IMG/VR virus record: IMGVR_UViG_2675903433_000022
DNA length: 64,000 bases
Reading direction: 5' to 3' (one strand)
Source of the DNA: a virus
Lineage: Duplodnaviria > Heunggongvirae > Uroviricota > Caudoviricetes
Below the pieces are notes generated by a model. It saw only the letters and a list, made by a program, of their open reading frames with translations. It was not told the DNA's origin and made no database searches. A program made the position numbers and the translations under genes. Positions within the stretch are counted from its first letter, which is position 1; the number at the start of each line of letters is the position of its first letter. Positions 2,120 to 61,264 of this stretch are shown in pieces.

Positions 2120-2180
2120 CTCTTGAAAATATATAAGTACTTACTTATTATTTTCGCATAACAACCACATAGGAAAACAC

Positions 2181-2381
2181 ATGATCAAAATCTATCTATT
2201 GGCAGTAGCCACAGGCGTTTCAGTGGCTCTCATCTACGGTTTACTGGTTCCGTCGCTGATTTCTACCAAGAGTGATTTAGCCGTCATGTTTGGAGTTATC
2301 GTTGGTTTTGGTGCTCCTGTAATCGGTCTTATTGCTGGTCGTAAGTTTATCAACTCATTAATCAAAGCAAAGGGGAAATAA
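2181..2381 (+). CDS. small membrane protein (two predicted TM helices)
   Basis: 66 aa, two hydrophobic stretches; conserved GGAAAACACATG initiation context; 3 bp before the next gene. Confidence 0.55.
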   Translation: MIKIYLLAVATGVSVALIYGLLVPSLISTKSDLAVMFGVIVGFGAPVIGLIAGRKFINSLIKAKGK

Positions 2382-2384
2382 GTA

Positions 2385-3215
2385 ATGAAGAAAGGTTTAC
2401 TTGCAGTTGCTCTGGCGGCTATTTGCACAATGGGTCTTACTGGCTGTGATCGCGTGGAGCCTGGATACGTTGGCATCAAAGTAAACAAATTAGGTGAAGA
2501 CAAAGGGATCGGTGAAGTGGTTGGCGTTGGTCGCCAATGGACAGGTCTTAACACCGAACTTTACGTATTCCCGACCTTCAAACAAATGAAGACCTACGAC
2601 GAGCCGTTCACATTCCAGATGAGTGACGGTACTGCTATTGGTCACAAAATTGGCGTTGCGTATCTGGTTAATCGTGACAAGGTAACGACGGTGTTCCAGA
2701 CCTATCGCAAAGGCGTAGACGATATCACCGAATCAGATCTGCGTCAGAAAATTGCCGACTCTCTAAACCGTTTGGCCAGCCGTATGACCACTGACTCATT
2801 TATCGACGGTGGTAAGGCACAATTGCTGGACAACGCACTGAAAGATATTCAGAAAGAGATGTCTCCGGTTGGTATTGAGGTACTGAGCCTGTCATGGGTT
2901 GGAAAGCCTGATTACCCAAAAACCGTCATTGAATCTATCAACGCCAAAGTAACGGCTAACCAGCGTACTCTGCAACGTCAGCAGGAAGTTGAACAACGTA
3001 AAGCTGAGGCGAATATGCTACGTGAACAGGCTAATGGTGAAGCTGATGCTATCCGTGCTCGTGCGCAAGCAGAAGCAGACGCCATTCGTCTGCGCGGTGA
3101 AGCTCTGCGTCAAAACCCGAACGTTATGGAGCTGGAAGCCATCAATAAATGGAATGGCCAGTTACCGCAGTACATGACTCAAGGGGCTAACACTCCTTTC
3201 ATTACAGTGAAATAA
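2385..3215 (+). CDS. SPFH/band-7 (stomatin/prohibitin-like) domain lipoprotein
   Basis: Signal peptide with lipobox LTGC; central region and Ala/Glu/Arg-rich coiled coil consistent with SPFH domain proteins. Confidence 0.7.
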   Translation: MKKGLLAVALAAICTMGLTGCDRVEPGYVGIKVNKLGEDKGIGEVVGVGRQWTGLNTELYVFPTFKQMKTYDEPFTFQMSDGTAIGHKIGVAYLVNRDKVTTVFQTYRKGVDDITESDLRQKIADSLNRLASRMTTDSFIDGGKAQLLDNALKDIQKEMSPVGIEVLSLSWVGKPDYPKTVIESINAKVTANQRTLQRQQEVEQRKAEANMLREQANGEADAIRARAQAEADAIRLRGEALRQNPNVMELEAINKWNGQLPQYMTQGANTPFITVK

Positions 3216-3233
3216 CTCTCTTTAAGAAGATCA

Positions 3234-3259
3234 GGCGTCCAGTTGGACGCCGTTTTATT
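3234..3259 (+). terminator. rho-independent terminator (GGCGTCC-agtt-GGACGCC + T run)
   Basis: Same stem sequence as the terminator at 2096; follows the SPFH gene stop. Confidence 0.6.
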
Positions 3260-3310
3260 CTCGTTATTAACACATACAAGAAAACAATTTGTTAAAAGGT
3301 AAAGTTAATT

Positions 3311-4135
3311 ATGCCCAACCACATTACAAACGAAATCCGAGTCATAGGTGGTACAAATAAACAACGCTTAGATTTCATACGTGCCATAACTAACAAAAAA
3401 GGTCTAATTGACTTTAATACCATTTGCAGACGTCCGAAAAGTATAGAAATGGAAGAAAACAATCATATCAGGCGCATGGCCTCTGCAATGGCGGGCGAAA
3501 CAGTTTACGACTACATGTTCGGTGAATTAAAGACTCCAGAACAGGTCGAATTAGCTATGCGTGAATCAGGAATGACACGCAAGGAAATTCGCAAAATCAA
3601 AGAGCAGGCTCTTATGCGGCTTGAGAATTATCGTCGCTATGGCTATTACTCATGGTTTGACTGGTCGCGAGCTAATTGGGGAACAAAATGGAATGCCTAC
3701 AACATCGAAATGCCCGTAAAACGTATCCCTACACGTATTAAGTACGGCCATAATTTCCGCCATACACACGTTCGAGCATATGCAAAACGAATCTATAAAA
3801 AACGTCTTGCAAGACATGCCGCAACTGGTGGTGAGTTGGTGATTCGCTTTGAAACAGCCTGGTCTATGCCAAAACCAATTTATCAAGCGATGGCTAGAAA
3901 GTTCCCGCACCTTGAGTTTGTAATACGTTATGCAGACGAAGACTTCGGCAATAACTGCGGACTCGTTTTACTTCGCAACGGCAAATGGGAATATGACTAC
4001 ATTGCACCGGCGAATAACGAACAATCGTCAGAAGAAAAAATCAAATGGCGCAAGTTCGCCTTTGAGTTATGTTGTCCTGGTATCACTCCACAAGAATACG
4101 GTCTAAATGAAGAATACGAATACGCCGGATATTAA
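3311..4135 (+). CDS. hypothetical protein
   Basis: Track ORF 274 aa; preceded by an AAACAAtTTGTT palindrome; Trp-rich segment YSWFDWSRANWGTKW; no assignable function. Confidence 0.6.
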   Translation: MPNHITNEIRVIGGTNKQRLDFIRAITNKKGLIDFNTICRRPKSIEMEENNHIRRMASAMAGETVYDYMFGELKTPEQVELAMRESGMTRKEIRKIKEQALMRLENYRRYGYYSWFDWSRANWGTKWNAYNIEMPVKRIPTRIKYGHNFRHTHVRAYAKRIYKKRLARHAATGGELVIRFETAWSMPKPIYQAMARKFPHLEFVIRYADEDFGNNCGLVLLRNGKWEYDYIAPANNEQSSEEKIKWRKFAFELCCPGITPQEYGLNEEYEYAGY

Positions 4136-4168
4136 AGAATTGTCATTTGGCTTTACGCTCGAAGCATA

Positions 4169-4921
4169 GTGGTTAAGAAGATGAAAAGAAAAATTGAAGA
4201 ACCAAAAACGACACTTAATAAACATGGGGAAAAAATTCAAACACACCCAGCGTTCGGTCTTGTGAAAACAAGCCGTGTTAGCACGACTGGCATTCGTCTA
4301 TTTGATTCAGAACTGGAACATAGAGACTATATTGAAATAGGCGTTTACGAGGCTGAACTATCCTTGGATAATGAACGAACCCGGCCACAAAGGAGTAGCA
4401 ATAGACGGCCTTTAGTTGAAATTAGACTTAGCCAGGCACAATGGGCTGCTATGGTTAGCAGTTTTGGTGTGGGCGAAGGTGTGCCATGCACTATTTCATA
4501 TAAAACCATTGGCGACTCAATTAGAGTTCATGATATTGCCGAGCAAAAAAGTATTCGACAAAAATTCAACGATCAAATAAAGGCAGCTACGAATAGTGAG
4601 ATTGATCGACTTAATCAGCAAGTATCAGAGCTAGGTGAGCTTGTGAAAAAAGGAAGAGCTGGAAAACGTGACCTTGAAGAACTATATAGAAAACTTGCAT
4701 CTGCTGTAGCTAACCTTCCTGAAAATCTGTGCTTTGCTACCGAATTAATGCAGGAGCAAATGGATGAAATTGTCTCATCTGGAAAGGCGGAGATTGAGGC
4801 GTATGTTGCAGGCACTGTTATGCGTAAAGGGTTAGCAGCATTAGGCACAGAATCATGCATTAACGATGCTCCTACTGTCTCTATCACCAAAATGGAAAGC
4901 GGTAAAGAATTACTACCATAA
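4169..4921 (+). CDS. hypothetical protein (alternative ATG start at 4181)
   Basis: Track ORF 250 aa with coiled-coil-like C-terminal half. Confidence 0.55.
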   Translation: MVKKMKRKIEEPKTTLNKHGEKIQTHPAFGLVKTSRVSTTGIRLFDSELEHRDYIEIGVYEAELSLDNERTRPQRSSNRRPLVEIRLSQAQWAAMVSSFGVGEGVPCTISYKTIGDSIRVHDIAEQKSIRQKFNDQIKAATNSEIDRLNQQVSELGELVKKGRAGKRDLEELYRKLASAVANLPENLCFATELMQEQMDEIVSSGKAEIEAYVAGTVMRKGLAALGTESCINDAPTVSITKMESGKELLP

Positions 4922-4941
4922 ATGTATCTGAGGTACTGACA

Positions 4942-5331
4942 ATGCTTTTAATTCAACCTGGGTTCGGTTTAAAGATAAAAAAAGGACATATGTTCGGTTT
5001 CAAAGAATCGAAACGAAAAATTCTGTCCATTAGATTGCCATTTATCACCATTCATTGGTTAAACAGAGAGTCAACCGATTATTGGTATAAATGTGCTCTG
5101 GCCGCATTTAACGACCCTGACTGGTTTATAGAAAACCACCATGCTGTTCGTCAGGCAAAGAGAAAAGCTAATACGACATACATGAAGGCGTATCGGAAGG
5201 CATGGAAAGAACACCGCGATCGATACCAAAAAGACATGGAGAAACTTGAATTGGAAAATATGGATCTAAGAAGGAAGCTCGGTGAAGCACGGCGAGATAT
5301 TGAAGCATATAAACGTCTTGTATCGGAGTGA
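4942..5331 (+). CDS. hypothetical protein
   Basis: Track ORF 129 aa, basic, coiled-coil C-terminus. Confidence 0.5.
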   Translation: MLLIQPGFGLKIKKGHMFGFKESKRKILSIRLPFITIHWLNRESTDYWYKCALAAFNDPDWFIENHHAVRQAKRKANTTYMKAYRKAWKEHRDRYQKDMEKLELENMDLRRKLGEARRDIEAYKRLVSE

Positions 5332-5333
5332 AT

Positions 5334-5468
5334 ATGACTTTACATTGTTTTTTCAAAGGGCATTGCTTTTCACTATACAGAAACAGAAATAATAATGGGG
5401 CATTCTACATATGTAGTAAATGTGGGAGGACAAAATATCTTCCAGATGTCAAATTTGAAGGTCCTTGA
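5334..5468 (+). CDS. possible small Cys-rich (zinc-ribbon-like) peptide, 44 aa
   Basis: ATG 3 bp after the upstream stop; CxxxxxC...CxxC spacing; below the 60-aa track cutoff, read by eye. Confidence 0.3.
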   Translation: MTLHCFFKGHCFSLYRNRNNNGAFYICSKCGRTKYLPDVKFEGP

Positions 5469-5911
5469 ATGTTTGCATTAAATGGGCAATACAGATGATC
5501 ACAACAGACTTTTCTAAATTAAGTGATTTTGAAATTAACAGACGAGTATGTGAGGCTTTAGATATGGAGGAGTATTTCTTCATACCTGATGACGAAGCAG
5601 ATTTCGATTCGGAGATCCCCACTGACGAAAGAGGTCCTGTTTGGCAGACGTCAAAAAGGGATATTAATGGCTTCCGTGCTTCAAACGGAAATTGCTTCAA
5701 TCCTTGCAACAACCCGGCGGACGCAAAGCCCATTATCGTAGAGAACAGAATTGGCATTATTCCTGCGCCAGAAAATGGATTATGGAAGGCAGCGCATAGA
5801 AAGATTGGTAACGATAATACTCCATACCATATGACTCAAAATGTAAATCCACTCCGCGCCGCCATGATTGTCTTTCTGATGATGAAAGAAAGTGAGAGTT
5901 GTACCGATTAA
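5465..5911 (+). CDS. hypothetical protein (start uncertain; alternative ATG at 5495)
   Basis: Track ORF 148 aa, same strand as neighbours. Confidence 0.45.
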   Translation: MNVCIKWAIQMITTDFSKLSDFEINRRVCEALDMEEYFFIPDDEADFDSEIPTDERGPVWQTSKRDINGFRASNGNCFNPCNNPADAKPIIVENRIGIIPAPENGLWKAAHRKIGNDNTPYHMTQNVNPLRAAMIVFLMMKESESCTD

Positions 5912-6210
5912 TGAATATATACGATTTTTTTAAAAAACCTAACACATGTGTCAGAAAAGGGTATAAACCGTCAGTCATCGATTGCTGGTCGCTATCAGCA
6001 AATAATCTCAACAATGTATTCAAAATGCATTGGGAGTTTCTTTGTGAAGCGCGCGGCGTTCTCGACATGACAGTCAGAGAAGCAATTATCTGGATTCTTT
6101 GGTTTCCGGTAAGAACATTTATGACTCTGACGTACCCATTTACCTTCTGGATTTGGGGAACCGTCCTTTATTTCATATTAAAAGGAGAAGTAAAACATGG
6201 CAGCAATTAA
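5899..6210 (+). CDS. hypothetical protein with C-terminal hydrophobic segment
   Basis: Track ORF 103 aa; Trp/Phe-rich hydrophobic stretch IIWILWFPV..FWIWGTVLYFIL. Confidence 0.4.
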   Translation: MYRLMNIYDFFKKPNTCVRKGYKPSVIDCWSLSANNLNNVFKMHWEFLCEARGVLDMTVREAIIWILWFPVRTFMTLTYPFTFWIWGTVLYFILKGEVKHGSN

Positions 6211-6622
6211 GAAACTCTACGATGCCGCAAACGCGGCTCTGGATGTTATTGATGATGAAGTATCAAAAGGCTTTCCTGAACCTGATTGGGCGCATCAGCT
6301 ACGAAACGCTATCGCCGAAATGAATCCACCAGATCCGACCACCGACGAGACAGACTGGCAGCGATTTATCCGTATGTACGCTCAGGAAATAGGTCCAACG
6401 CCAACGGCAGAGCAAGCAATGCTGCTGAAATACTTCAAAGAGGCGGGAGAGGATTTACCAATTGATGACTCAGCATATTGGTTCCACTGCGCATGGCGTA
6501 AGTATGACGTGATATTCACACAAGGCATGGGGAGCAAAGATATGGTTGTGTGGCATCTACTCCATATAGACACAGCCGTTGACAGAGTTATTGAACAGTT
6601 TTTCCCTAACCAAGAAGATTGA
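6197..6622 (+). CDS. hypothetical protein
   Basis: Track ORF 141 aa; AAGGAG RBS upstream. Confidence 0.55.
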   Translation: MAAIKKLYDAANAALDVIDDEVSKGFPEPDWAHQLRNAIAEMNPPDPTTDETDWQRFIRMYAQEIGPTPTAEQAMLLKYFKEAGEDLPIDDSAYWFHCAWRKYDVIFTQGMGSKDMVVWHLLHIDTAVDRVIEQFFPNQED

Positions 6623-6677
6623 TCGCCTATTCATAACTAACAAAATAAGTAAACACTAACCACAAAAGGAAAAACAC

Positions 6678-6953
6678 ATGAGAGTTTTAGTTCGAATCGT
6701 TACCAGCACTGTCTATGACGTGTTTCCGCTTTTTATGGTCAAAGTCGATGGCCTTAACGACGAAGAAACTGACGCGCTGATCCAGCGTACTCTTGTTGAA
6801 TATACAGGTCATGACGCTGATTCAGTGATGGTTGATGATGATGGTGTTTGTTGGCATAACGGCAACTGTTGGTACGTAGAAGAGACTCAACAAATCAGTG
6901 ATGAAGATGCCGCACATCTTGAGCGTATTTTAAGCATTGGCACTTTTGAGTGA
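6678..6953 (+). CDS. hypothetical protein
   Basis: Track ORF 91 aa; conserved AAAAGGAAAAACACATG initiation context. Confidence 0.55.
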   Translation: MRVLVRIVTSTVYDVFPLFMVKVDGLNDEETDALIQRTLVEYTGHDADSVMVDDDGVCWHNGNCWYVEETQQISDEDAAHLERILSIGTFE

Positions 6954-6992
6954 GTTTACAGTAAAATTTATATAAGTTAGTATCTACCTATC

Positions 6993-7172
6993 ATGAAGAT
7001 TTTTATTGAATACTTGTTACTCATCGCTTCAATAGCTTTTGTCATCGACTGCATTTTCACTGGTGTCATTCGTAAAGTCTTTTCCCCGGTGAACGACGTA
7101 GTCATAAACGCTTTGGCTATCGTGCTCGTATTTAATTCAGCATTTGATGTAATCAAAGAGGTGGCAGCATGA
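6993..7172 (+). CDS. possible small hydrophobic membrane peptide, 59 aa
   Basis: Below track cutoff; stop overlaps the next start (ATGA); two hydrophobic segments. Confidence 0.3.
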   Translation: MKIFIEYLLLIASIAFVIDCIFTGVIRKVFSPVNDVVINALAIVLVFNSAFDVIKEVAA

Positions 7173-7504
7173 AGGCCATCCCATTTGCGCTGTTGTTCCT
7201 TTCTTCGATCGTTGTGGCCGACACCACTGTTTATCAGTGTGAAATGTCTGTAGCCGACGTTAAGAATGGCGCTCTTACCGACGTCATAAAAGCACCATAT
7301 GGAGCGATGGTCGTAGACAGCGGCGACCAGTTCTATGTTGTGCGTGACGATCGAGTGTTGTCATCCCCATATCTCACAAACCGTAATGGCAAATTAACCG
7401 GCGTCGGAGAAGACCACTTCGTATACAACAAATACAAGGGCTTCTATGGCGTTCACGCTTCTCAGCAAAGCTACCTTTTCGATGACTGCAAGGAGGTTGG
7501 ATAA
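7169..7504 (+). CDS. hypothetical secreted protein (N-terminal signal peptide)
   Basis: Track ORF 111 aa; hydrophobic N-terminus MKAIPFALLFLSSIVVA. Confidence 0.55.
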   Translation: MKAIPFALLFLSSIVVADTTVYQCEMSVADVKNGALTDVIKAPYGAMVVDSGDQFYVVRDDRVLSSPYLTNRNGKLTGVGEDHFVYNKYKGFYGVHASQQSYLFDDCKEVG

Positions 7505-7716
7505 TGGCATTAACACTGGCAGGTCTGGAAATCGAGAAAACAAGCGGCTACTGGCGTGCTAAGGGTTTCAAGCAGCCTGGCATTCTTGAGCGTCTGGAAC
7601 GTGAAGATGGGTATATCGTCCACCAGCGGCGTGAATGGCGTATGTACGATCCAGAAACAGGAAAACTGACTACAAAAGCCGGAACACTTTGGGGTCTGTT
7701 AAAGAAAATACACTAA
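7504..7716 (+). CDS. hypothetical protein
   Basis: Track ORF 70 aa; start overlaps the upstream stop. Confidence 0.45.
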   Translation: MALTLAGLEIEKTSGYWRAKGFKQPGILERLEREDGYIVHQRREWRMYDPETGKLTTKAGTLWGLLKKIH

Positions 7717-7763
7717 ATGCAAACTGACTGCGGCACGTTCCGCAGTCATATTTCATAGTCGTC

Positions 7764-8296
7764 ACCGCTGACAGCATACACAATCAACTACCGCTGATAG
7801 CATATCGAGAGTCTATCTCACCGCTCACAGCATACTTTACTCGATTTTTTACCGCTGACAGCATACTTAAGACATTGCATGAATAATGTGTACCGGTATG
7901 GGTATAACCAGAACAAAATTACCGCTGGCAGCATACGAATGTCTGACATATGCCATTAATTACCGCTGATAGCATATCCAAACAAAAATTCCTCAATAAC
8001 ACACCGCTGACAGCATACGTTATATCAGGGAACAGCAGGCAATAAATGCCTTTCACTACAAGCAATCAGCGCAATAGCAATAGAATGTTAGTGAGCGCAA
8101 ACCTATATGGAATGCACTCTTCGAGGTTAGTAACCACTGGGGAGGTATGACAGAGCATTGAGTGGTGATAGATGATTTACCGCTCACAGCATACGTTCAT
8201 CTCACTATACCGCTGGTAGCATATCTTTAACCGTTCACAGCATACTTTTCAGAAAAATAGCCGCTGATAGCATACATTTCACCGCTGACAGCATAT
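7764..8296. repeat. iteron array, 12 copies of ~16 bp ACCGCTGACAGCATAC-like repeat (incA-like)
   Basis: Copies near 7764, 7790, 7820, 7851, 7921, 7962, 8003, 8179, 8209, 8230, 8260, 8281 with minor variants; abuts the 3' end of the RepA-like gene. Confidence 0.85.
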
Positions 8297-9390: not shown

Positions 9391-9410
9391 GTGGACACCT
9401 TTGTCATTCA

Positions 9411-9512
9411 ACCGCTGACAGCATACTTGATTTGCCGCTGGCAGCATACCAAAAACAGTTGGTAGCATACGGCGAACCGTTGACAGACTATCAATTACCG
9501 CTGGCAGCATAC
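9411..9512. repeat. iteron array, 5 copies (incC/origin-proximal set)
   Basis: Same ACCGCTGACAGCATAC family (two degenerate) immediately upstream of the RepA start. Confidence 0.8.
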
Positions 9513-9552
9513 ATGAACATGGCTTCAGGCCAGTCGTGGCGCGGCTTACAGC

Positions 9553-9625
9553 GATCGGGGATCTTATTTGATCTATACAAGGATCTATCTATGGATCTCT
9601 TTATTAGGATCTATCCTGTGGATAT
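9553..9625. other. candidate plasmid replication origin core: six GATC sites in heptamer-like repeats plus DnaA-box-like TGTGGATAT
   Basis: GATC at ~9553, 9560, 9570, 9582, 9594, 9608 followed by TGTGGATAT (8/9 match to TGTGGATAA) at ~9617; adjacent to the upstream iterons as in P1 oriR. Confidence 0.6.
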
Positions 9626-9711
9626 GTGAATAATTAAAACAGGCATTTACTACCTTCGGCGCACCTGGTGGGTTATCGTTGCCTCGGCTAACAATCACAG
9701 AAAAATGACAT

Positions 9712-10356: not shown

Positions 10357-10611
10357 CCCTCCAGATCGCATATTGGCGTAGATAGAATCTACGCCTCCTC
10401 AAAATAGCTCTCATAGCGTTTTACAGTGATCCTGTCTTATTTTTAGTCATACAGACAAGCAAAGTTGCGCCACAATAAATAGGTATATACTTACTTATAA
10501 ATTTTGTATATTAAGGCGCTCGTTTTCATTCCTAACATACCGTTATGCATAGTTGTTTACCTTCTCATTGCTCTTAGAATTTGTATCAAAATAACCACAA
10601 AGGAAAAACAC

Positions 10612-14576: not shown

Positions 14577-14585
14577 GGAGACTAT

Positions 14586-15155: not shown

Positions 15156-15228
15156 TTTCATTGATAGGTAAGTGCTTATCTATTAACATGGGCCACTATA
15201 TTTAGTGGCCCTCTTTATTTGGTGATAC

Positions 15229-19740: not shown

Positions 19741-19884
19741 TTGTAGGTAGTTATCTATCTATGTATATTGTGTTGGCGCGTTAAATTCCTGAAACAACTA
19801 TTCGTTTTTGGTGGCCTATGGCCACCATTTTTTTATCTATCTGGCCTTGTTCCCTCAATAAATGTAAACTCACTTAATGAATAA

Positions 19885-21015
19885 GTGGTTACTTATCTTT
19901 GTGAGGTTTTTGTGTCACTCCTTTTGAATCGTGAGCATACGAACGGTCAGGTAACAAACGCATCGTATGCAAAAGTTATTGAGACGGTGCTTAAAAGCGG
20001 CGTGCAGGCTGATGATCGCACAGGCACTGGTACTTTAAGCACCTGCTACGTTCCCTCTTACTACATGCTTACTGGTGGGACTGTGCCGCTTATTTCTGGA
20101 AAGGCGGTAAATCTTAAGCCACTGCTTGTCGAACTTGAGTGGTATCTGAAAGGCACGGGCAACATCCAATTTCTCAAGGATAACGGCGTTAAGATTTGGG
20201 ATGCATGGGCCGATGAGAATGGCGATTTGGGGCCGGTTTACGGTAAGCAGTGGCGTCGATGGGAAGATACCCGCATCGTGAGCCATAGTGAATATCTGAG
20301 CAAGATCGATACTTTCCGTGAACGCGGGTACAAAGTCGAAGGATACCTGGGTATCAGTGAAGATCGCGTAGTGCTGTCCCGTGAAATCGATCAGCTACAG
20401 CGTATTGTCGATACACTGCGCACGAACCCTACCGATCGTCGCATCATGCTTAACGCATGGAACGTAGGCGATCTTGAGGATATGAAATTGGCACCTTGCC
20501 ACTTTGCCTTCTCTTTGTGGAGTCGTGAGCTTGATTTTGAAACTCGTTTAACGATGGCAACTGACATTGGTCTTCAACACAGTCGCCTCGGTTACGAGTC
20601 TATCTACACCAAGATGCTATACGATCTGGAGATGGACGGCAGTGTTACTGAAACTGAACTGGATGAACTTGGAATCCCCAAACGCATCCTCAACTCCTGC
20701 CTCGTACAGCGTAGCGTAGACACTTTTGTTGGTATGCCATTCAATATTGCTGGCTATGGCATTCTCACTCATTTTCTCGCGAAGATTACGGGTCACATGG
20801 CCGGTGCATTTGTGCATTTTGGCTTTGATGTGCATTTGTACAATAACCACATGGAAAGTGTGTGTGAGCTAATGAAACGACAGGCTCCAGAGCATTCAGA
20901 TCCGGTCGTTATTTTCCCTCATGAATGGTCTGAGCTGGATGATTTCAAATGGGACGATATTCTGATTCTTGGCTATGACCCTCTACCGTGGATCAAGGTT
21001 CCAGTGGCGGTGTGA
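19885..21015 (+). CDS. thyA: thymidylate synthase (start codon uncertain)
   Basis: DRTGTGTLS N-terminal motif, active-site LAPCHFAF (PCH), PFNIAGYGILTH; track start is a GTG. Confidence 0.85.
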   Translation: MVTYLCEVFVSLLLNREHTNGQVTNASYAKVIETVLKSGVQADDRTGTGTLSTCYVPSYYMLTGGTVPLISGKAVNLKPLLVELEWYLKGTGNIQFLKDNGVKIWDAWADENGDLGPVYGKQWRRWEDTRIVSHSEYLSKIDTFRERGYKVEGYLGISEDRVVLSREIDQLQRIVDTLRTNPTDRRIMLNAWNVGDLEDMKLAPCHFAFSLWSRELDFETRLTMATDIGLQHSRLGYESIYTKMLYDLEMDGSVTETELDELGIPKRILNSCLVQRSVDTFVGMPFNIAGYGILTHFLAKITGHMAGAFVHFGFDVHLYNNHMESVCELMKRQAPEHSDPVVIFPHEWSELDDFKWDDILILGYDPLPWIKVPVAV

Positions 21016-24686: not shown

Positions 24687-24745
24687 ATTGCCATACATGA
24701 AATCAAATGCAAAAATAGGTAATCACTTACCTATCGAGAAAGAAG

Positions 24746-26930: not shown

Positions 26931-27031
26931 TAAGTAAGTGTTTACCTATCATTTTAAATCATGTATCTTATCGGCGTCAGGATGACAATGTGTCGGTGAG
27001 ACACAGTTCCAGGATGGAACGAGAAAGGCGG

Positions 27032-31013: not shown

Positions 31014-31074
31014 TAGGTAAATACTTACTTAATTTGTGTAAGAATGTAGTAACTAAACGATAAGAGAAAAACAC

Positions 31075-48101: not shown

Positions 48102-48120
48102 GATTAAGCTCCTTAAAAAA

Positions 48121-49615: not shown

Positions 49616-49618
49616 AAC

Positions 49619-50143: not shown

Positions 50144-50147
50144 GTCA

Positions 50148-50612: not shown

Positions 50613-50638
50613 CTTTGTCTCCCTAATTGATAGCGTGA

Positions 50639-50917
50639 TTATTTTAATCTGCTTAATAGCGTTTCGAGATCTTCCTTTGTCATATTAGAGTTCTCATAGA
50701 TACGCATGATTTTCTCACGAGTCTTAGCGGAAGCCCCGACAGAAGATATAACCTTGTCAAAGTCGGCCATTGTCAATTGTTCCAGAATGGTATTTATGAC
50801 TTCAGCCTTAGACATTTTGATATTTTTTTCTTTTAGTTTCACTTGAAACTTTCCAAGTTTGTCATTGGCCTTATCAGACAATGCTACCTGACAATAAGTT
50901 GTTTTCTTTTCACTCAT
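50639..50917 (-). CDS. hypothetical protein
   Basis: Track ORF 92 aa immediately downstream of the helicase gene. Confidence 0.5.
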   Translation of the reverse strand: MSEKKTTYCQVALSDKANDKLGKFQVKLKEKNIKMSKAEVINTILEQLTMADFDKVISSVGASAKTREKIMRIYENSNMTKEDLETLLSRLK

Positions 50918-50919
50918 AA

Positions 50920-52479: not shown

Positions 52480-52543
52480 AAACCTCTTTCCTTAGTGCCT
52501 TTTGTATGTTATTTGGCTATTATAATAAGTAAGTGATTACTTA

Positions 52544-53242
52544 GTGGATTGTAGCAATAAAATGGATGTAAAAATCACGATTTTGCAGGTTGATGTTGCC
52601 AACCTTCGCCCGAATACCTGGAACACCAATTCGGTTGGTGCGCAGAATTTTGAAAAACTGAAAGGTTCTATCGAAAAATTGGGCTTTTTTAAGCCAATTT
52701 TGGCTCGTGAACTTGAAGATGGATTTTTTGAAATCCTCGGCGGCGAACATCGCTGGCGTGCTGCTATTGAGCAAGGAATTTCAACGGTTCCGGTGCTTTC
52801 TGTGGGCAAAATTAGCGATGTCGTAGCTAAACAGATGTCACTGGTGGACAACGAGCGATACGGTGAAGACGACCAAATCGCATTGCAACGCTTCATTGAA
52901 GAAATTCAGTCAGAACTTGACTATCAACTGTCTGAAATCGCCCCGTATGACGACGAAATCTCGATGGTTTTAGCAAAAGAGGCGGCAATCGACCTTGAAG
53001 CACTGGAGGCGTTGTCTCGTGGTAGTGATGAGCCTGTCGATACCGACAAACGAGAGAAAACCGAACGTGTGGGGGCGGAACATCAGACCATGCGCTTCAA
53101 AGTAACTTTCGATGCGTCAGATCGTGTTGCAGAAACCATAAAAAACATCATCAAAGAGCAGGCTATTAACACCGGTAATGAAATGGAGAACGCTGGTGAG
53201 GCTCTGGTGTGGCTGGTCGACTACTACAAGGAGCGTATGTAA
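52544..53242 (+). CDS. ParB-like nuclease domain protein 1 (start may be ATG 52562)
   Basis: ParB N-terminal domain signature ILGGEHRWRAA. Confidence 0.7.
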   Translation: MDCSNKMDVKITILQVDVANLRPNTWNTNSVGAQNFEKLKGSIEKLGFFKPILARELEDGFFEILGGEHRWRAAIEQGISTVPVLSVGKISDVVAKQMSLVDNERYGEDDQIALQRFIEEIQSELDYQLSEIAPYDDEISMVLAKEAAIDLEALEALSRGSDEPVDTDKREKTERVGAEHQTMRFKVTFDASDRVAETIKNIIKEQAINTGNEMENAGEALVWLVDYYKERM

Positions 53243-54572: not shown

Positions 54573-55459
54573 CGGACATCATCATTAAACGCTACCGCCC
54601 TGAAGAGTTTCCGCGTCATCTGGACTTTCTGGAGCGAATGACTGTTACAAAGGGAACTGTAGAGGACTGGCACGCTCTTAAGTCGCTTCACTACAAAACA
54701 GACGGCAAACCTTTCGCGCCAACTTACTATCGCTGCGAACTTGATGACCGTCTGGTGGGCGTCGTGGTTATGGCTTACCCGAAACTACTGTTGGCACCTC
54801 GCCACCGCATGTTTCCTAAGTTGAAACCAACCACTAATACCACCGTGGCTAACCAGTACTGGGGTCGGTACGTGAATAACAACTTTGCGGTGATCAGTCG
54901 CTCAGTTGTGGATACTCAGTATCGTGGCGTAGGCGTCTCTTATCGAATGATTAACCTGGTTAGCAGGATGCATGACCGGCCAATCATTGAGATCCAGTCC
55001 TCGATGAGCAAATACAATCCCTTCGCCATGAAAGCAGGGTTTAAGTTCATCCGCCCTGAGCGACCGAAGAGCTATGAAAGTGCACTGCGTGTATTCCAGC
55101 GCCATTTCCGTTCCGACCCGGGTGATAACGAGGCGATCGTCAAAGAGTTGTTCGCAATGAGCGAGTCTCGTCGTCGCCGTGCACTGCGTGATCTGGTGGC
55201 GGACTACCACAAGAACAGTTCCCTGGCAAAAGCTGGGCGGAATCGTGGCACTACGATTCAGGACATTGCCGACAGTCTGGTGGACGAGGCCAGCATTGTG
55301 AAGCTGCTCAAGGACATTCACAACCTGAGCTTTACGTCTCCGTTGTATGGTGTGTACCGAAACCCTGACTTTGGCCGTCGACTGCCTGACACGCTGCCAC
55401 TGCTGGCATTCGACAAACAACCTTTGGATAAACCGTTAGAAATTGCTTTACCGGCATAA
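54569..55459 (+). CDS. GNAT-like acyltransferase domain protein with C-terminal extension (tentative)
   Basis: Motif A-like VVDTQYRGVGVSYRMINLV and motif B-like NPFAMKAGFKFI. Confidence 0.45.
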   Translation: MTDIIIKRYRPEEFPRHLDFLERMTVTKGTVEDWHALKSLHYKTDGKPFAPTYYRCELDDRLVGVVVMAYPKLLLAPRHRMFPKLKPTTNTTVANQYWGRYVNNNFAVISRSVVDTQYRGVGVSYRMINLVSRMHDRPIIEIQSSMSKYNPFAMKAGFKFIRPERPKSYESALRVFQRHFRSDPGDNEAIVKELFAMSESRRRRALRDLVADYHKNSSLAKAGRNRGTTIQDIADSLVDEASIVKLLKDIHNLSFTSPLYGVYRNPDFGRRLPDTLPLLAFDKQPLDKPLEIALPA

Positions 55460-55468
55460 GGATTTGCC

Positions 55469-55735
55469 ATGACGTTAACCGACAAACAAAAGGACATCAT
55501 CAAAACGCTCAATCTCGGTTATGAGCGAGGTCATCTACTTGATCTGGACGAATTGCTTGAAGTTTTGCCGTACAAGACAACCAAGCAAAGTATCCAGTTC
55601 TCAATTCGCGCTCTGATAAAAAAGGGGCTGGTGGAGAAAGGGCATACGCGCCAACGCAGTGACAATCGCTATCACCGCCGGACTCTTGGGTTAACCACTT
55701 TAGGTCGAGCCAAAGCGAAGTTACTGGTGATGTAA
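55469..55735 (+). CDS. small winged-helix DNA-binding protein (tentative)
   Basis: 88 aa; helix-turn-helix-like segment and basic C-terminus. Confidence 0.4.
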   Translation: MTLTDKQKDIIKTLNLGYERGHLLDLDELLEVLPYKTTKQSIQFSIRALIKKGLVEKGHTRQRSDNRYHRRTLGLTTLGRAKAKLLVM

Positions 55736-55759
55736 TCGGTCTGGGAGCTTATTTAAAGA

Positions 55760-55816
55760 CCTGCTTCTGTATATATAAATAATAAGTAACTTATTAAATA
55801 TATACGGAAGCAGGCT
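55760..55816. repeat. long inverted repeat, copy 2 of 2
   Basis: CCTGCTTCTGTATATAT ... ATATATACGGAAGCAGG, near-identical arms to the element at 25361-25419. Confidence 0.6.
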
Positions 55817-55930
55817 TCGTAAGACATGCCAGACCTAATTAAACACCCCAGAAAACAAGTTGGTTAGCAGATGCAGTAAACAAGTTGTTTTAGAGCGCAT
55901 GGACGCGCTCTGTGTGTTTTAGAGGGATCT

Positions 55931-56563
55931 ATGACGGTCGAAAAAGACGAGGTAAAAACTCGCCTGACACCAGCGGAGTGGGCCGAAGCTGAAGCCAAAT
56001 GGACGTCAGGCGAATATACACTCTCAAAGCTGGAGGAAGAGTACGGCATTCGTCGTGAAACACTCTCCAGACATTTCAAAAAGCGAGGATTAGAGAAAGG
56101 CGCGGACTCTGTTGGGAAGATGGTTCGTGAGTCTCTTAAATCTGACGCAGAGCTTCGCGCTAAAGCCCGTGCGGAAAAGATAGAAGAACGTCGTACACGT
56201 TATGACGGCTGGGCGTATGCGTTGGGGCAGATGGTGATGGTCGAAGTCACTACGGCCAAACGTGAGGGTAAGCCTTTAGGGGCGATTGAGGATTCTCTCA
56301 AGAGCTTACAGAGAGCCAGTAATACCCTTGCAAAATGCTTTGAAGTTTCGTCCAAAGCATTGGGCATGGATCATGCGGAAAATGACGAGGAAGAAATTCC
56401 GAACCTGGTATTTGGTGAGCTTACGCCTTCCCAGGTGGCGAAATTACGTCAGGAAGACGACGAGCCTGAAATCATCGATGACGAATTGCTTGAGACGTTG
56501 GAAGAAGAAGCTCTAAGCGAATTTGATGCGACAGATGATGGAATTGAAGGGGAGGACGAATAA
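55931..56563 (+). CDS. terminase small subunit (putative)
   Basis: 210 aa immediately upstream of and overlapping the large terminase start; acidic C-terminus; call by position. Confidence 0.5.
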   Translation: MTVEKDEVKTRLTPAEWAEAEAKWTSGEYTLSKLEEEYGIRRETLSRHFKKRGLEKGADSVGKMVRESLKSDAELRAKARAEKIEERRTRYDGWAYALGQMVMVEVTTAKREGKPLGAIEDSLKSLQRASNTLAKCFEVSSKALGMDHAENDEEEIPNLVFGELTPSQVAKLRQEDDEPEIIDDELLETLEEEALSEFDATDDGIEGEDE

Positions 56564-57819
56564 TGGCAATCCCGTCCTCGCTCAGTCTTGTGCAACTGCA
56601 TTCTGGACAGATGAAAGTCTTCCAGTCTCCGCATCGATTTAAAGTTGTTTGTGCTGGTCGACGCTGGGGAAAATCCCGGTTGTCGATCTCCACTATTATT
56701 CGTGCGGCGGCAAAGGAAAAAAAGCAAAGAGTCTGGTATGTCGCTCCTACTTACCAGATGGCTCGCCAGATTTTGTGGGACGATCTACAGGAAGTTCTGC
56801 CTCGTAAGTGGGTTAGGAAAAAGAACGACACCACGATGACAATCGTGTTGAAGAACGGTTCGGAGATCGCCCTCAAAGGTGCTGATAAGCCTGACACTCT
56901 GCGCGGCGTAGCGTTGCATTTTGTAGTGCTTGATGAATTTCAGGATATGAAGGCTGACACCTGGTACAAGGTGTTACGACCTACTCTTTCATCGACACGC
57001 GGCGGTGCACTGATCATTGGTACGCCAAAAGGCTTCTCGGAATTTCACAAACTGTGGACTATAGGCCAGAACGTAGAGCTGCAAAGAAAGGGACAGTGGA
57101 AGAGCTGGCAGTTTGTAACTGCCGATTCTCCGTTTGTACCTACGGCGGAAATTGAAGCTGCTAAGAATGATATGGACCCGAAATCGTTCGCTCAGGAGTA
57201 CCTGGCGAGCTTTGAGAACATGTCCGGGCGCGTTTACTACCCGTTCGATCGTAACGTGCATGTAAAACCGCTTCAGTTCAACCCTCGGTTGCCTATATGG
57301 GTAGGGCAGGACTTCAACATTGACCCGATGTCTTCAGTAATTTTGCAACCTCAGCCAAATGGTGAGCTATGGGCAATTGATGAATTGGTGCTCTTTTCCT
57401 CTAACACGGCAGAGGTTTGTGATGAGCTTGAGAGACGCTTCTGGCGCTGGAAATCACAGATAACGGTATTTCCAGATCCGGCAGGTGCTTATCGCCAACA
57501 TGCTCGCGGGGAGTCTGACGTCGACATATTCAAAGAGAAGGGATTCTTACGTGTCGATTATTCGAAAAAGCACCCGCCAATTGCGGATCGTGTTAATGCT
57601 GTTAACCGAATGCTGATGACCGCATCTGGAGATATCCGGTTGTATATCGATCCGAAGTGCAAGCATTTGATTGATTCACTGGAAAAAGTCATCTACAAGC
57701 CTGGAACACGAGATATGGATAAGACAGGTGGCATTGAGCATAGTGCAGACGCATTGGGCTATCCAGTACATCGTAGGTATCCAGTCAAAAACCGTGTTAT
57801 TCTTGGTGGTTCTCGATAG
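56563..57819 (+). CDS. terminase large subunit
   Basis: Terminase-type Walker A VCAGRRWGKS and Walker B VVLDEFQD; C-terminal nuclease-sized domain. Confidence 0.85.
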   Translation: MAIPSSLSLVQLHSGQMKVFQSPHRFKVVCAGRRWGKSRLSISTIIRAAAKEKKQRVWYVAPTYQMARQILWDDLQEVLPRKWVRKKNDTTMTIVLKNGSEIALKGADKPDTLRGVALHFVVLDEFQDMKADTWYKVLRPTLSSTRGGALIIGTPKGFSEFHKLWTIGQNVELQRKGQWKSWQFVTADSPFVPTAEIEAAKNDMDPKSFAQEYLASFENMSGRVYYPFDRNVHVKPLQFNPRLPIWVGQDFNIDPMSSVILQPQPNGELWAIDELVLFSSNTAEVCDELERRFWRWKSQITVFPDPAGAYRQHARGESDVDIFKEKGFLRVDYSKKHPPIADRVNAVNRMLMTASGDIRLYIDPKCKHLIDSLEKVIYKPGTRDMDKTGGIEHSADALGYPVHRRYPVKNRVILGGSR

Positions 57820-57845
57820 GTAAGTAATTATCTAAGGTTATTCAA

Positions 57846-59420
57846 ATGGAATTGAACGACAAACAAATTAAGGATCTGGTGGCGCGACGCCACCCGGAAT
57901 ACGAAAAGAAAAAAGAACATTGGGACTTCCTCGCCAGCACTTACGCTGGCGGGCGTGGTTGGTTTACAGACAATATCTTTCGTTACTTTAAAGAGGGAGA
58001 TCAGGAGTTTAAGGAGCGAGTTGAGCGTGCTTATCGCTTCAACCACACTCGTGAGGTGGTAAACCTCATCAACAAATATCTCTTTAAAGAAGACATTCAT
58101 AGAAATATCGAAGAGGCACCAGAGCAGATCCGCAATTTCTGGAAACGTGCGACTCGCCAGAATGCCTCTATTGACTCATTTATGGCCGCTATTGATTTGC
58201 AGTCGTCTATTTACGGTCGCATATGGGTTGTTGTCGATAGCACGATGAGTGGTGATGTTGAGTCAGTAGCTGACGAGAAAAAGAAAGATGCTCGCGCCTA
58301 CGCCTACTGGATTTCACCTCAGCAAATGCTGGATGTGGCATGGGACGACGACGGGAATATGTTGTGGGCGTTAATTGTGGAAGTCGCTCGTGATGACGCA
58401 GATCCTTTTACTTCTACAGGTCAGGAATACCAACGTTATCGTCTGTGGACACAAAACGAGTGGTATCTGTTCCGTGAGGAAGTGAAGAAGGGCGCTGGTG
58501 GAGCAGGTCGCCGTCAGGCAAAAGTTATTTTAGAGGATAGCGGTGAGCATAATCTCGGCGTAGTTCCTGTGTTTCCTGTTGATTGTATTGGAGAAAGTGA
58601 ATCACCGTATTTCAGCCCATCGTTGATCGATGATATCGCTTATCTTGATCGTGCGGTTGCAAACTATCTGTCAAACCTTGATGCCATTATTCAGGATCAG
58701 ACATTTAGCCAGTTGGCTATACCGGTACAGTCGCTTTTACCTGGTGATGAAAACCACACTAAAGTGCTTGAAATGGGCACAAAGCGAGTCTTCACCTACG
58801 ATTCTGAAGGTGGAAACCAGCCGTTTTATCTGTCACCAGACCCGAAACAAGCTCAGATGATCATCACTACGATTAAGACGGTGATTAACGAAATCTACCA
58901 TTCAGTTGGTGTAGCTGGTGAGCGAACGAAGCAGGACAACGCACAGGGAATCGATAACTCATCTGGTGCCGCAAAAATGTATGACTTCCAGCGTGTAAAT
59001 AGCTTGCTTGTCACAAAAGCAGAGCGTCTGGAAAGGGCTGAACGCCAAATCATGCTACTGGTTGCGAAATGGATGGGGGTAGATCTGGACGAAGACCACT
59101 CTTTAATTGCGTATCCAGAAAGTTTCGATATTCGTGGCCTTACAGATGAATTTTCTGTTGCCGAGAAACTGTCATTACTTCAGGCACCGGACTCTGTACG
59201 TCGTCACCAGATGGAAATGCTTATTGAGAAGATTTTCCCGAACATTACTGAGGCGATGAAAAAGGAATTTGATAAAGATCTCTTGAATTTTCCGCCAAAA
59301 AATGATCTAAATACCCTTGAAAATAAGTCAGTACTTACTTATGATCGTGGTACAGCCCAAGAAAGCGGGCAAGATCAACCCCGAGGGAATGGGGACTCAT
59401 CTACTCAAGAGAACGAGTGA
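57846..59420 (+). CDS. portal protein (putative)
   Basis: 524 aa directly after the large terminase; call by size and synteny. Confidence 0.55.
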   Translation: MELNDKQIKDLVARRHPEYEKKKEHWDFLASTYAGGRGWFTDNIFRYFKEGDQEFKERVERAYRFNHTREVVNLINKYLFKEDIHRNIEEAPEQIRNFWKRATRQNASIDSFMAAIDLQSSIYGRIWVVVDSTMSGDVESVADEKKKDARAYAYWISPQQMLDVAWDDDGNMLWALIVEVARDDADPFTSTGQEYQRYRLWTQNEWYLFREEVKKGAGGAGRRQAKVILEDSGEHNLGVVPVFPVDCIGESESPYFSPSLIDDIAYLDRAVANYLSNLDAIIQDQTFSQLAIPVQSLLPGDENHTKVLEMGTKRVFTYDSEGGNQPFYLSPDPKQAQMIITTIKTVINEIYHSVGVAGERTKQDNAQGIDNSSGAAKMYDFQRVNSLLVTKAERLERAERQIMLLVAKWMGVDLDEDHSLIAYPESFDIRGLTDEFSVAEKLSLLQAPDSVRRHQMEMLIEKIFPNITEAMKKEFDKDLLNFPPKNDLNTLENKSVLTYDRGTAQESGQDQPRGNGDSSTQENE

Positions 59421-59441
59421 TAAGTAACAAAGGGAATTTTT

Positions 59442-60329
59442 ATGAAACTGTGGCAAATGCTTTTGGCCCGTCGTGGTCTGATGGATGTTGCTGAAGCGCA
59501 TGAGCGTGGGGGCGCTGGCGGTGTAGCTGCTGATAATGAGCAGAGTACACAAGATCCTGACAAGCAGGGTGAACAAAAAGAGCAGCCGAAGGGTGATGAC
59601 GAATACGCTGGCATGACTCATGAAGAGTTACTGGTCGAACTTCGCAAAACCAAGAAAGCTGGTGCTGAACTGCTGAAAGAGAACATGAAGCGCAAAGAGA
59701 AAGAGCGCACATTGGCCGATCAGCTTGCTCAGTACGGTGATATCGACCCGGCGCGTGCTCGCCAGCTTTTAGAAGCTGAACAGGCCGCAGAAAACGCACG
59801 TCGTGAGGCGGAGCAAGCTGAACTGGAGCGTCGTGGTGAGTTCGATGCTGTTAAAAAACAGATGATCGAAGCACACCAGGCAGAGCTGGCACAGCGTGAC
59901 GAACGTTATGCAGCACTGGAAAGTGAAAACGCATCACTGAAATCTCAATTAGTCGAGATGACCGTGGGCGCTTCCTTCAGTAACTCTCTCTTCCTACGTG
60001 ACAAAGTTCTGATGACTCCGGCAAAAGCCCGCGTGATCTACGGTTCTCATTTTGAAGTGGGTGAAGACGGTAGCGTAGTGGGTTATGACAAACCGGCAGG
60101 TCATAAAGAACGAGCTGTTCTGGTTGACGGTGAAGGTAAGCCGTTGCCGTTTGAATCCGCGATTGAACGCATTGTGCGGGCAGATCCGGAAGCTGACGCA
60201 TTGATGCGTAGCGAAGCCAAGCAGGGTGTAGGCTCACATTCCAAATCGACCTACACAATATCCCAACCGAAGAACAAGTCGACTATGGATAAGTTGGCCT
60301 CCGGTCTGGGGAAAATTGGACTTAAGTAA
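59442..60329 (+). CDS. scaffolding-like coiled-coil protein (putative)
   Basis: Ala/Glu/Arg-rich predicted coiled coil between the portal and capsid genes. Confidence 0.45.
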   Translation: MKLWQMLLARRGLMDVAEAHERGGAGGVAADNEQSTQDPDKQGEQKEQPKGDDEYAGMTHEELLVELRKTKKAGAELLKENMKRKEKERTLADQLAQYGDIDPARARQLLEAEQAAENARREAEQAELERRGEFDAVKKQMIEAHQAELAQRDERYAALESENASLKSQLVEMTVGASFSNSLFLRDKVLMTPAKARVIYGSHFEVGEDGSVVGYDKPAGHKERAVLVDGEGKPLPFESAIERIVRADPEADALMRSEAKQGVGSHSKSTYTISQPKNKSTMDKLASGLGKIGLK

Positions 60330-60354
60330 CATCTAAATCAAAGGGAATTGATAG

Positions 60355-61230
60355 ATGCCATTACTGCGTGAAGAAGCTGAAAAGCTGTCTAACAACGAAC
60401 TTGAACAGGGTGTGATCGAAACTATCATCGATCGCGATGACCTGTTTGCCATCCTGCCTTTTATGAAAATTAATTCAAAGGCATATCTGTACAACCGTGA
60501 AAAAACGCTGAGTGAAGCTACCTTCATCGACGTTAACGACACCATCCCGGAAGGTGCAGCAACCTTCGAAGAATGCGTTGCGAAACTGCGTATTCTGGCT
60601 GGTGACGTAGACGTTGATAAATTCCTGGCAACCACTATGGCCGACACCAATAACCAGTTGGCTATTCAGGTTCGTCAGAAAGTTAAAGGTCTGGCTCGTG
60701 CGTTCCGTCGCAATCTGATTTTGGGTGACTCCAGCACCAACAACAAAGCGTTTGACGGCATTCCACGCCTGATGCACGCAGATCAGAAGATCGATATCGC
60801 CGGTGCATCTATGACTTTCTCTATGTTCGACGAACTGGTCGATGCGGTGAAAGATCTTGGTGCTGACTGCATCATGATGCGTTCAGAGCACCTTCGTGCT
60901 TACCGTGCGCTGCTGCGTACAGTAAACGTAGGTCCGTCTGAAATCATGATGGAGAACTTCGGTCGTCCGATGCTGTGTCATAACGGCGTTCCGTTCATCA
61001 TCAACGACTTCATCCCGACCGATGCTGGCAAAGCAAGCATCTACTGCCTGCATCTGTCAGAAGAGAACGGCGTTACTGGTCTGTATGGCGGCGACAACGC
61101 AGGTATCGTTGTTGAAAACATTGGTACTGTACAGAACAAAGACGCAGTACGTACCCGTGTGAAGTGGTACTGCTCTCTGGCGAATAAGCACGATAAGGCT
61201 ATCGCTGCACTGACCAATGTAAAAATTTAA
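60355..61230 (+). CDS. major capsid protein (putative)
   Basis: 291 aa after the scaffold-like gene, strong terminator downstream; call by synteny. Confidence 0.5.
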   Translation: MPLLREEAEKLSNNELEQGVIETIIDRDDLFAILPFMKINSKAYLYNREKTLSEATFIDVNDTIPEGAATFEECVAKLRILAGDVDVDKFLATTMADTNNQLAIQVRQKVKGLARAFRRNLILGDSSTNNKAFDGIPRLMHADQKIDIAGASMTFSMFDELVDAVKDLGADCIMMRSEHLRAYRALLRTVNVGPSEIMMENFGRPMLCHNGVPFIINDFIPTDAGKASIYCLHLSEENGVTGLYGGDNAGIVVENIGTVQNKDAVRTRVKWYCSLANKHDKAIAALTNVKI

Positions 61231-61264
61231 TCAGTGTAGTAGATAGGTAGTTATCTATGTTAAA

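Follow-up and report, generated by a model that had tools for sequence, protein, structure and literature searches.

A short palindrome recurs at gene boundaries of the 64,000-nucleotide stretch of Caudoviricetes DNA recorded in IMG/VR as IMGVR_UViG_2675903433_000022 (hereafter the window, meaning that stretch at its full length), and it is a real, conserved cis-element that is specific to one family of phage-plasmids. Its consensus changes symmetrically between clades of that family, and some of its copies overlap conserved sigma70 promoters. We read it as the probable operator of a dimeric, sequence-specific regulator encoded by the family itself, with a repressor as the favoured form, and we hold this reading with moderate confidence. 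Neither the palindrome nor the regulation of lytic genes in this type of phage-plasmid was found described in the literature searched.

An abundant palindrome at gene boundaries

The element is an imperfect palindrome of 18 bp with the consensus TA[G/A]GTAAGTACTTA[C/T][C/T]TA, which the usual A/T flanks extend to 20 bp (A-TAGGTAAGT·ACTTACCTA-T; 20-mer form ATAGGTAAGTACTTACCTAT). Its information content forms a symmetric block of ~20–24 bp with A/T-rich, mirror-image flanks. The initial annotation of this DNA, made from the letters alone, had drawn the two halves with a gap of two bases between them, but the 9-mers TAGGTAAGT and ACTTACCTA abut directly. The family is degenerate (TARGTA-N6-TAYYTA), the exact form TAGGTA-N0-12-TACCTA occurring a single time, at 24716. 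When the degenerate pattern (TARGTANNNNNNTAYYTA), which had not been trained on the sites, was searched on both strands with at most one mismatch, 31 matches were obtained against 1.21 expected, while the maximum in 100 shuffles was 5. A scan with a symmetric position weight matrix (PWM) returned 15 sites of at least 14 bits where 0.04 were expected, comprising 13 strong and two weak copies (Table 1).

The eleven copies listed in the initial annotation are all present within a few bases of the positions given there, and the one singled out as clearest, near 24722, is the most perfect copy of the window. The list had missed two strong copies, those at 19878-19895 and 59324-59341. What it called a partial copy at 59417 is a lone half-site (GATAAGTAAC), and the copy it placed in the loop of an inverted repeat does exist, at 55776-55793, as a weak one of 14-17 bits.

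Placement of the palindrome is strongly biased. Non-coding DNA, which makes up 12% of the window, holds 12 of the 13 strong copies (binomial P=1.1e-10), so that the location between a stop codon and the next start proposed at the outset was borne out by the PWM scan and the spacing check. The distance from the upstream stop codon to the copy has a median of ~9 nt and is typically 0–19 nt. The genes beside the copies are sbcD, nrdA, thyX, dam, the ParB-like operon/uvsW, TerL/portal, the portal 3' end and the major capsid gene, so that early and structural regions are indeed served alike.

Conservation and concerted change in related phage-plasmids

A 12-kb stretch of the window matches the Escherichia phages Cyrano, CMS-2020a and PhiR41_1 at 98.4–98.6% identity, Salmonella phage SSU5 and Klebsiella phage-plasmids at ~76% identity, and 705 plasmid records. 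Because of these matches to Cyrano, SSU5 and plasmid records, the window is assignable to the SSU5/pHCM2-type phage-plasmids of E. coli. Its gene content was assigned via the Cyrano annotation. Positions 1–52,500 carry recombination, replication and nucleotide-metabolism genes together with an accessory region, the DNA-metabolism genes of the phage including T4-like ones (UvsW, UvsY and gp32-like). An operon at 52,562–55,735 encodes two proteins with a ParB N-terminal domain, two ATPases and an 88-aa protein (p88), and TerS, starting at 55,931, is followed by the TerL, portal and major capsid genes.

The comparison with related phage-plasmids that the initial annotation had proposed placed the motif at orthologous positions in Cyrano and SSU5. 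Scanned with the same PWM, the full Cyrano genome holds 23 sites and SSU5 holds 21, in spite of a nucleotide identity of only ~76%. Orthologous sites follow TerL, the capsid gene and genes M and J, precede the tail-tube gene, the holin and helicase operons and the sbcD, nrdA, thyX and dam genes, and occupy the 3' end of the portal gene. By contrast, the same PWM found zero sites in 50 kb of Pseudomonas phage nickie and zero in 61 kb of P1, and a discovery run for exact palindromes in nickie gave no equivalent family. At the portal- and SbcC-gene loci, taken from 160 viral contigs, motif sites are still present at ~60–70% protein identity, and in MAFFT alignments the motif stands as a conserved island amid diverged intergenic DNA. 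A scan of 185,579 species genomes for TARGTAAGTACTTAYYTA matched SSU5-like contigs of Kluyvera, Buttiauxella and Klebsiella, and it gave scattered single matches in unrelated bacteria at about the chance rate by our own estimate, with no hint of a host regulon.

Between clades, positions 3/16 and 7/12 of the palindrome change symmetrically and genome-wide, giving the consensus series TAGGTAAG..CTTACCTA, TAGGTAG..CTACCTA, TAGGTAT..ATACCTA and TATGTA..TACATA. The copy inside the portal gene follows the same rule, since in the relative L081 it obeys the consensus of L081 itself and thereby alters amino acids of the portal protein (NKSVLTY to NRYVNTY). These observations bear on the idea of a passive boundary element, namely a linker rich in stop codons on both strands (TAG-G-TAA-G-TAA) or a microhomology for module exchange, with no trans-acting factor involved. 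The 20-mers do carry stop codons in one to three frames per strand, and they are located at module and gene junctions, like the linkers proposed for mosaic phages. However, a concerted symmetric change of the consensus across whole genomes requires sequence-specific selection, as does the retention of the in-portal copy with its -35 and -10 flanks, and stop codons alone would not preserve an 18-bp palindrome. We therefore consider a passive element very unlikely.

Constraint on the palindrome at the DNA and RNA levels

If the palindrome acted as an RNA stem, its constraint should be visible in base-pairing. Within clades, the half-sites vary independently, with 88.7% of cells paired against 88.0% after shuffling (151 of 500 shuffles as high), and the covariation score of 0.166, a level that 106 of 500 shuffles reached (0.151 in shuffles), gave no sign of covariation past what column composition produces. 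On the transcribed strand, mismatches are balanced between G·U (31) and A·C (27). Predicted RNA folds range from 0 to -7.4 kcal/mol with A+U-rich stems and no U-tract, and 4 of 12 copies fold no better than shuffled sequence, in agreement with the earlier remark that the copies would make poor RNA terminators. Thus, the palindrome has neither the G+C-rich stem and U-tract of an intrinsic terminator nor the compensatory change and the preference for G·U over A·C of a structured RNA. The true terminators are separate hairpins at 2093-2113, 19809-19827 and 61265-61285, and an Rfam search of the window gave no match.

An RNA-level role would have the palindrome act as an intercistronic hairpin in mRNA processing, stability, translational control or termination, for which its position right after stop codons inside polycistronic units and the better-than-shuffled folding of 8 of the 12 copies could be quoted. 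Yet the weak folds and the four shuffle-like copies, the A·C mismatches as frequent as G·U ones, a degree of pairing that column composition explains in full and the lack of an Rfam match led us to reject an RNA hairpin, a terminator or a known RNA family, and a single sequence common to all copies of a genome that shifts by clade points the same way, making an RNA-level role very unlikely. Because the halves change together between clades and vary independently within them, the mismatches are balanced and the folds are weak, we infer that the palindrome is a DNA site recognised by a protein rather than a hairpin or terminator.

Overlap with sigma70 promoters in a variable register

Conserved sigma70 core elements (-35/spacer/-10) are overlapped by the palindrome at no fewer than five sites, namely 2123-2151, 15161-15189, 59317-59345, the sbcD site and a tail-tube site that lies outside the window (TTGAAT-18-TATACT, with the -10 inside the palindrome). 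The leftward uvsW promoter adds a further case, its TATAAT abutting copy 52526. The geometry of promoter and motif at 2123-2151 is retained in SSU5 and in the relatives L144, L160 and L162, while the -35, motif and -10 at nrdA are kept in seven genomes, down to ~62% SbcC identity. At the sbcD site, a (TG)nCATAAT element 9–12 nt past the palindrome is conserved in relatives. Depending on the site, the palindrome lies over the -10, the spacer or the -35, and the -10 hexamer of the conserved sites starts at motif position 11, 17, 20 or ~28-29. Given that activators need a fixed geometry, this variable register toward the promoter elements argues for the operator of a repressor.

Scored with a sigma70 PWM, 7 of 41 sites reached at least 9 in the forward direction, compared with 1.5 expected and with 0 of 41 in antisense; because the antisense control gives 0/41, only a subset of the sites appears to represent real forward promoters. 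The single best promoter-like match (10 of 12 positions) overlaps a motif copy in both of the 20-kb segments scanned (1-20000 and 44001-64000). The genes behind two near-consensus promoters, which score 11.7 and 11.9, are absent from those whose expression in the Cyrano lysogen was reported to exceed background (PMC9928086). The initial annotation had suggested a distinct class of promoters or operators. Its operator half agrees with the symmetry of the site, the clade-wise concerted change and the sigma70 overlap. By contrast, a distinct promoter class was not borne out, in that no common oriented -35 or -10 was found in the flanks of all copies and most copies score no better than shuffled sequence as sigma70 promoters.

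The same region of the data has to be weighed for an activator-dependent or phage-specific promoter element, in which a phage factor (possibly p88) would recruit host RNA polymerase to promoters without a -35, in the manner of the P1 activator Lpa. The -35 is missing at most copies, and sigma70-consensus sites are not enriched in the window and perhaps depleted (19 against 32±6.6 expected in 1-20000, and 24 against 27 in 44001-64000). The last TA of the motif with the four bases after it often reads TAT.AT or TAT.TT, and 23 of the 39 sites have a T as the sixth of these bases. However, this -10-like flank is mirrored by an A at position -3 (22 of 39 sites), which makes it part of a symmetric, unoriented site, and the register to conserved -10 elements varies as described above. 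At six or seven copies, the next start codon follows after 42-51 nt, which counts in favour of a promoter element; on the other hand, a Shine-Dalgarno sequence follows 2-8 nt past the motif at the portal, dam, thyX and CYRAN_31 sites, so that these genes have to be translated from transcripts starting upstream of the motif, with no room for a start site downstream. Three copies fill the spacers of promoters that already have a good -35 and -10, and the post-capsid copy, whose -10-like flank is unconserved, is directly followed by a conserved terminator. In favour of an activator, the p88 gene stands just upstream of terS, where many siphophages encode late activators, and p88 is unreported among the lysogen-expressed genes (PMC9928086). 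On this balance, an activator-dependent element is possible, though we regard it as doubtful.

The likeness to P1 late promoters deserves separate mention. The inner core of the motif, AAGT(N0-2)ACTT, resembles the P1 Lpa box AAGTnACTT, a short palindrome that is likewise set in the spacer, immediately before the -10, and P1 late promoters are also without a -35 and dispersed over a phage-plasmid of the same hosts. In the P1 sites that we extracted, the Lpa box lies at ~-22 and the -10 hexamer follows after 4 nt in a fixed geometry, which the window motif fails to keep, its distance to the -10 being variable and its length 18-20 bp instead of 9 bp. Moreover, and unlike in P1, copies in the window also stand at early genes (nrdA, sbcD, thyX, dam, uvsW) and at promoter-free places. 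A tblastn search with P1 Lpa (gp10) against the window, Cyrano and SSU5 gave spurious matches only (E >=0.85), with no Lpa homologue found. By geometry, gene class and the lack of an Lpa homologue, the palindrome thus falls outside the P1 late-promoter class. Repeated regulatory sequences at gene boundaries are also known from the PeSL cassettes and MotA boxes of T4, whose DNA-metabolism genes have counterparts here, and the motif is, in its right half (TGCTTAT or ACTTAC), loosely MotA-box-like; in contrast to these, the window element is palindromic and has no fixed ~12-nt gap to a -10 hexamer.

Two further observations were made at promoters. A palindrome resembling the NrdR box consensus (GGGCCACTATATTTAGTGGCCC, 15190..15211) lies directly downstream of the nrdA promoter and is kept in all clades, which suggests that host NrdR controls the phage nrdAB genes. 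At 45474-45502, a variant palindrome of 14 bp (TAAGTACATACTTA), with the same half-sites at a shorter spacing, is found in the spacer of a promoter-like TTGTAA-17-TAGAAT.

Candidate binders of the palindrome

Among the proteins encoded in the window, p88 appears to be the best candidate for the binder. Its structure model (pLDDT 81) is a winged helix of topology H-(E)-H-H-wing-H, for which the best Foldseek matches are MarR, MepR, ZitR and AdcR (TM 0.72-0.76), and it superposes on the winged-helix domains of MarR, MepR and ZitR with a TM of ~0.75. MarR dimers bind palindromes of 16-20 bp that overlap -35 and -10, a length into which the 18-20 bp of the window palindrome falls. The predicted membership in the MarR family is one of fold only, as p88 has 88 aa compared with ~140 aa for MarR proteins, is without their dimerisation helices, and gave no Pfam match and no significant sequence match in PDB. 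The protein is restricted to this phage-plasmid family (12 phage records; at least 75% identity in all 120 homologues listed, out of 165), and tblastn against the first 50 kb of nickie, which cover the syntenic region and are also motif-free, found no match. Across clades, the predicted recognition helix of p88 is invariant and its wing variable; the TA.GTA core of the motif is also invariant. The p88 operon begins at copy 52526, and the p88 gene lies just upstream of the small terminase gene.

An alternative candidate is ParB1, the first protein of the same operon, with the palindromes serving as its loading or binding sites in KorB- or Noc-like silencing or genome organisation, or as dispersed centromeres as in phage N15. 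ParB1 matches PF02195 with E=3e-13 (ParB2 with 1.5e-8) and aligns with Spo0J and Noc, its ParB N-terminal domain carrying a GGEHRWRAA box; the operon starts 18 nt past copy 52526. Plasmid RK2 has 12 OB sites, the targets of the ParB-family global repressor KorB, and the palindromes resemble them in being at least a dozen, dispersed, set at varied promoter distances (promoter-free copies included) and accompanied by a gene with a ParB N-terminal domain beside one copy. However, a homologue of ParB1 that is 31% identical, within the same gene order, is present in nickie, where the motif is absent, and strict placement at gene boundaries is atypical of parS or Noc sites. The AF2 model of ParB1 (pLDDT 37, from homologues all at least 85% identical) leaves its DNA-binding domain unconfirmed, so that binding of the motif by ParB1 would be hypothetical. 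As to a centromere, the ParA-type partition operon, which is separate, and the long inverted repeat, which is distinct from the palindrome, make better candidates. A ParB/KorB-type system is therefore possible in principle and, in our judgement, quite unlikely. The order of the genes at 52562-55459, encoding the two ParB N-domain proteins and two ATPases, is kept in siphophages of ~96-120 kb infecting Rhizobium, Stenotrophomonas, Xanthomonas and Pseudomonas.

A weak third candidate is p92. Its homologue in Cyrano, CYRAN_117, is among the genes reported as expressed in the lysogen (PMC9928086). Profile searches against PDB and Pfam did not support a ribbon-helix-helix reading of p92 and gave no significant PDB sequence match. 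CYRAN_45, the annotated repressor of Cyrano, was rejected as binder, being absent from SSU5, which retains every site; SSU5 is also without the integrase of Cyrano.

Table 1. Palindrome copies, candidate binders and second-motif copies in the window
Feature	Position	Strand	Context
TATATAAGTACTTACTTA	2130..2147		Fills spacer of TTGAAA(2123-2128)-17-TATTAT(2146-2151), sigma70 score 11.7; 3' of terminator 2093-2113
TAAGTTAGTATCTACCTA	6973..6990		Stop codon 19 nt before, ATG of 59-aa ORF 2 nt after; identical in Cyrano and SSU5
Copy upstream of sbcD	10480..10497		Conserved -10-like element 9-12 nt downstream: TATATT here, TGnCATAAT or GATAAT in relatives
nrdA copy	15165..15182		Fills spacer of TTGATA(15161-15166)-17-TAACAT(15184-15189)
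Copy after mazG-like gene	19744..19761		3 nt past mazG-like stop; upstream of terminator 19809-19827
thyX copy	19878..19895		17 bits; thyX start 16 nt downstream; orthologue in SSU5
TAGGTAATCACTTACCTA	24716..24733		Start of adenine methyltransferase (dam) 12 nt downstream; most perfect copy of the window
Copy	26931..26948		Begins directly after stop codon
Copy	31014..31031		Begins directly after stop codon; conserved tgTAAGAAT block 8 nt downstream
Copy	52526..52543		Divergent region between uvsW (-) and ParB1...p88 operon (+); abutted by leftward -10 TATAAT (52524-52519, - strand)
TerL/portal copy	57817..57834		First TAG is the TerL stop codon; portal Shine-Dalgarno overlaps 3' end of copy
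In-portal copy	59324..59341		3' end of portal gene; fills spacer of TTGAAA(59317-59322)-17-TATGAT(59340-59345), upstream of scaffold and capsid genes
Post-capsid copy	61240..61257		9 nt past major capsid stop; intrinsic terminator 61265-61285 next
Weak copies	55776-55793, 25375-25392		14-17 bits; in loops of a separate long inverted repeat
p88	55469..55735	+	88-aa predicted winged-helix protein, family-restricted; best candidate for putative binder
ParB1	52562..53242	+	Alternative candidate; ParB N-terminal domain, GGEHRWRAA box
p92	50639..50917	-	Weak third candidate; CYRAN_117 homologue
Second-motif copies	3283, 17608, 27861, 28590, 29304, 37454, 42458, 42509, 45074, 45976, 46740, 55879		Oriented motif, separate from the palindrome

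Other repeated elements and neighbouring features

A second, oriented motif family of the form ..TAAt.AaCAC.AaTAAGAA-AACAAnTTGTT-T was found in the window, its exact core occurring 12 times where 0.17 would be expected. Eight copies have the next start codon 23-43 nt further on, and one stands in front of TerS. The second motif and the TAGGTAAGT palindrome share none of 49 intergenic gaps, and the former looks like a separate class of promoters or leaders. A TAAGAAT/TAAGAT box also follows the palindrome after 8-11 nt in the copy at 31014 and in two copies of Cyrano.

The long inverted repeat CTGCTTCYGTATATA...TATATACGGAAGCAG, with arms of ~15 bp, occurs after dam (25364-25416), between p88 and TerS (55761-55813) and, in Cyrano, after the parA operon (~31180), and may serve as a dispersed centromere or bidirectional terminator. 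Downstream of copy 26931, an intergenic run of 46 N characters (masked or unresolved) fills 27032-27077. The minus strand of 49619-50221 codes for a FljA-like relative of the phase-1 flagellin repressor (Pfam Flag1_repress, E=2.5e-84); this protein may have a lysogenic-conversion function on host flagellin.

Phage nickie (L171, NC_042091) is a distant relative with the same gene order (uvsW / ParB-like ... TerS TerL portal). Its intergenic -10-like hexamers (TATACT, CATAAT, TACAAT) are flanked by site-specific inverted repeats, often with GCGC, for example at 41939-42005, 43738-43816 and 47547-47617. Nickie has a different solution at these gene boundaries.

Discussion

Among the closest functional parallels of the palindrome, besides the Lpa boxes of P1, MarR-type operators and the KorB–OB network of RK2, are the C1 operators of P1, where one regulator has many operators spread over a phage-plasmid of ~100 kb, overlapping the promoters of separate lytic operons. 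Unlike the palindrome, C1 operators are asymmetric 17-mers (ATTGCTCTAATAAATTT type) confined to early functions, whereas the window site is symmetric and is found in the late region as well. We propose that the palindrome, with ~21-23 copies per genome, marks the boundaries of genes in two modules, that of replication/nucleotide metabolism and that of morphogenesis. On a copy overlapping a host sigma70 promoter in its spacer, -35 or -10, a bound dimer would occlude RNA polymerase, and in the simplest case a repressor would silence the lytic operons in the plasmid-prophage state in this way. Promoter-free copies would then act as auxiliary, cooperative or roadblock sites, and p88, with its MarR-like winged helix, would be the candidate for the bound protein.

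Several points weigh against a plain operator of this kind. About 70% of the copies are without a recognisable sigma70 promoter, and these promoter-free copies include the family-wide ones at TerL/portal and at the capsid stop/terminator, where a plain operator model fails. A single regulator acting on early and late genes alike would give no temporal order. In addition, p88 is absent from the genes listed as expressed in the Cyrano lysogen (PMC9928086), a state in which a repressor would be at work.

A more elaborate model would let p88, perhaps with the adjacent ParB-like and ATPase proteins, control a co-directional lytic genome of ~100 kb through ~22 gene-boundary sites, some of them operators at promoters and others, at promoter-free junctions and upstream of terminators, roadblocks or insulators. 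Such a system would combine KorB-like silencing with partitioning, and its specificity would have co-evolved clade by clade. This model is speculative, and we consider it rather unlikely.

Phage-plasmids of the SSU5/pHCM2 type are common in Escherichia, Klebsiella, Salmonella, Enterobacter and Yersinia, and antibiotic-resistance genes have been reported on members of this type (PMC9600943, PMC12217456). Together, the motif, the few candidate regulators and three well-defined promoter/operator pairs open the lysis–lysogeny circuit of the family to direct tests, and the clade-specific variants of the motif offer a natural experiment on how a regulator and its full set of sites co-evolve.

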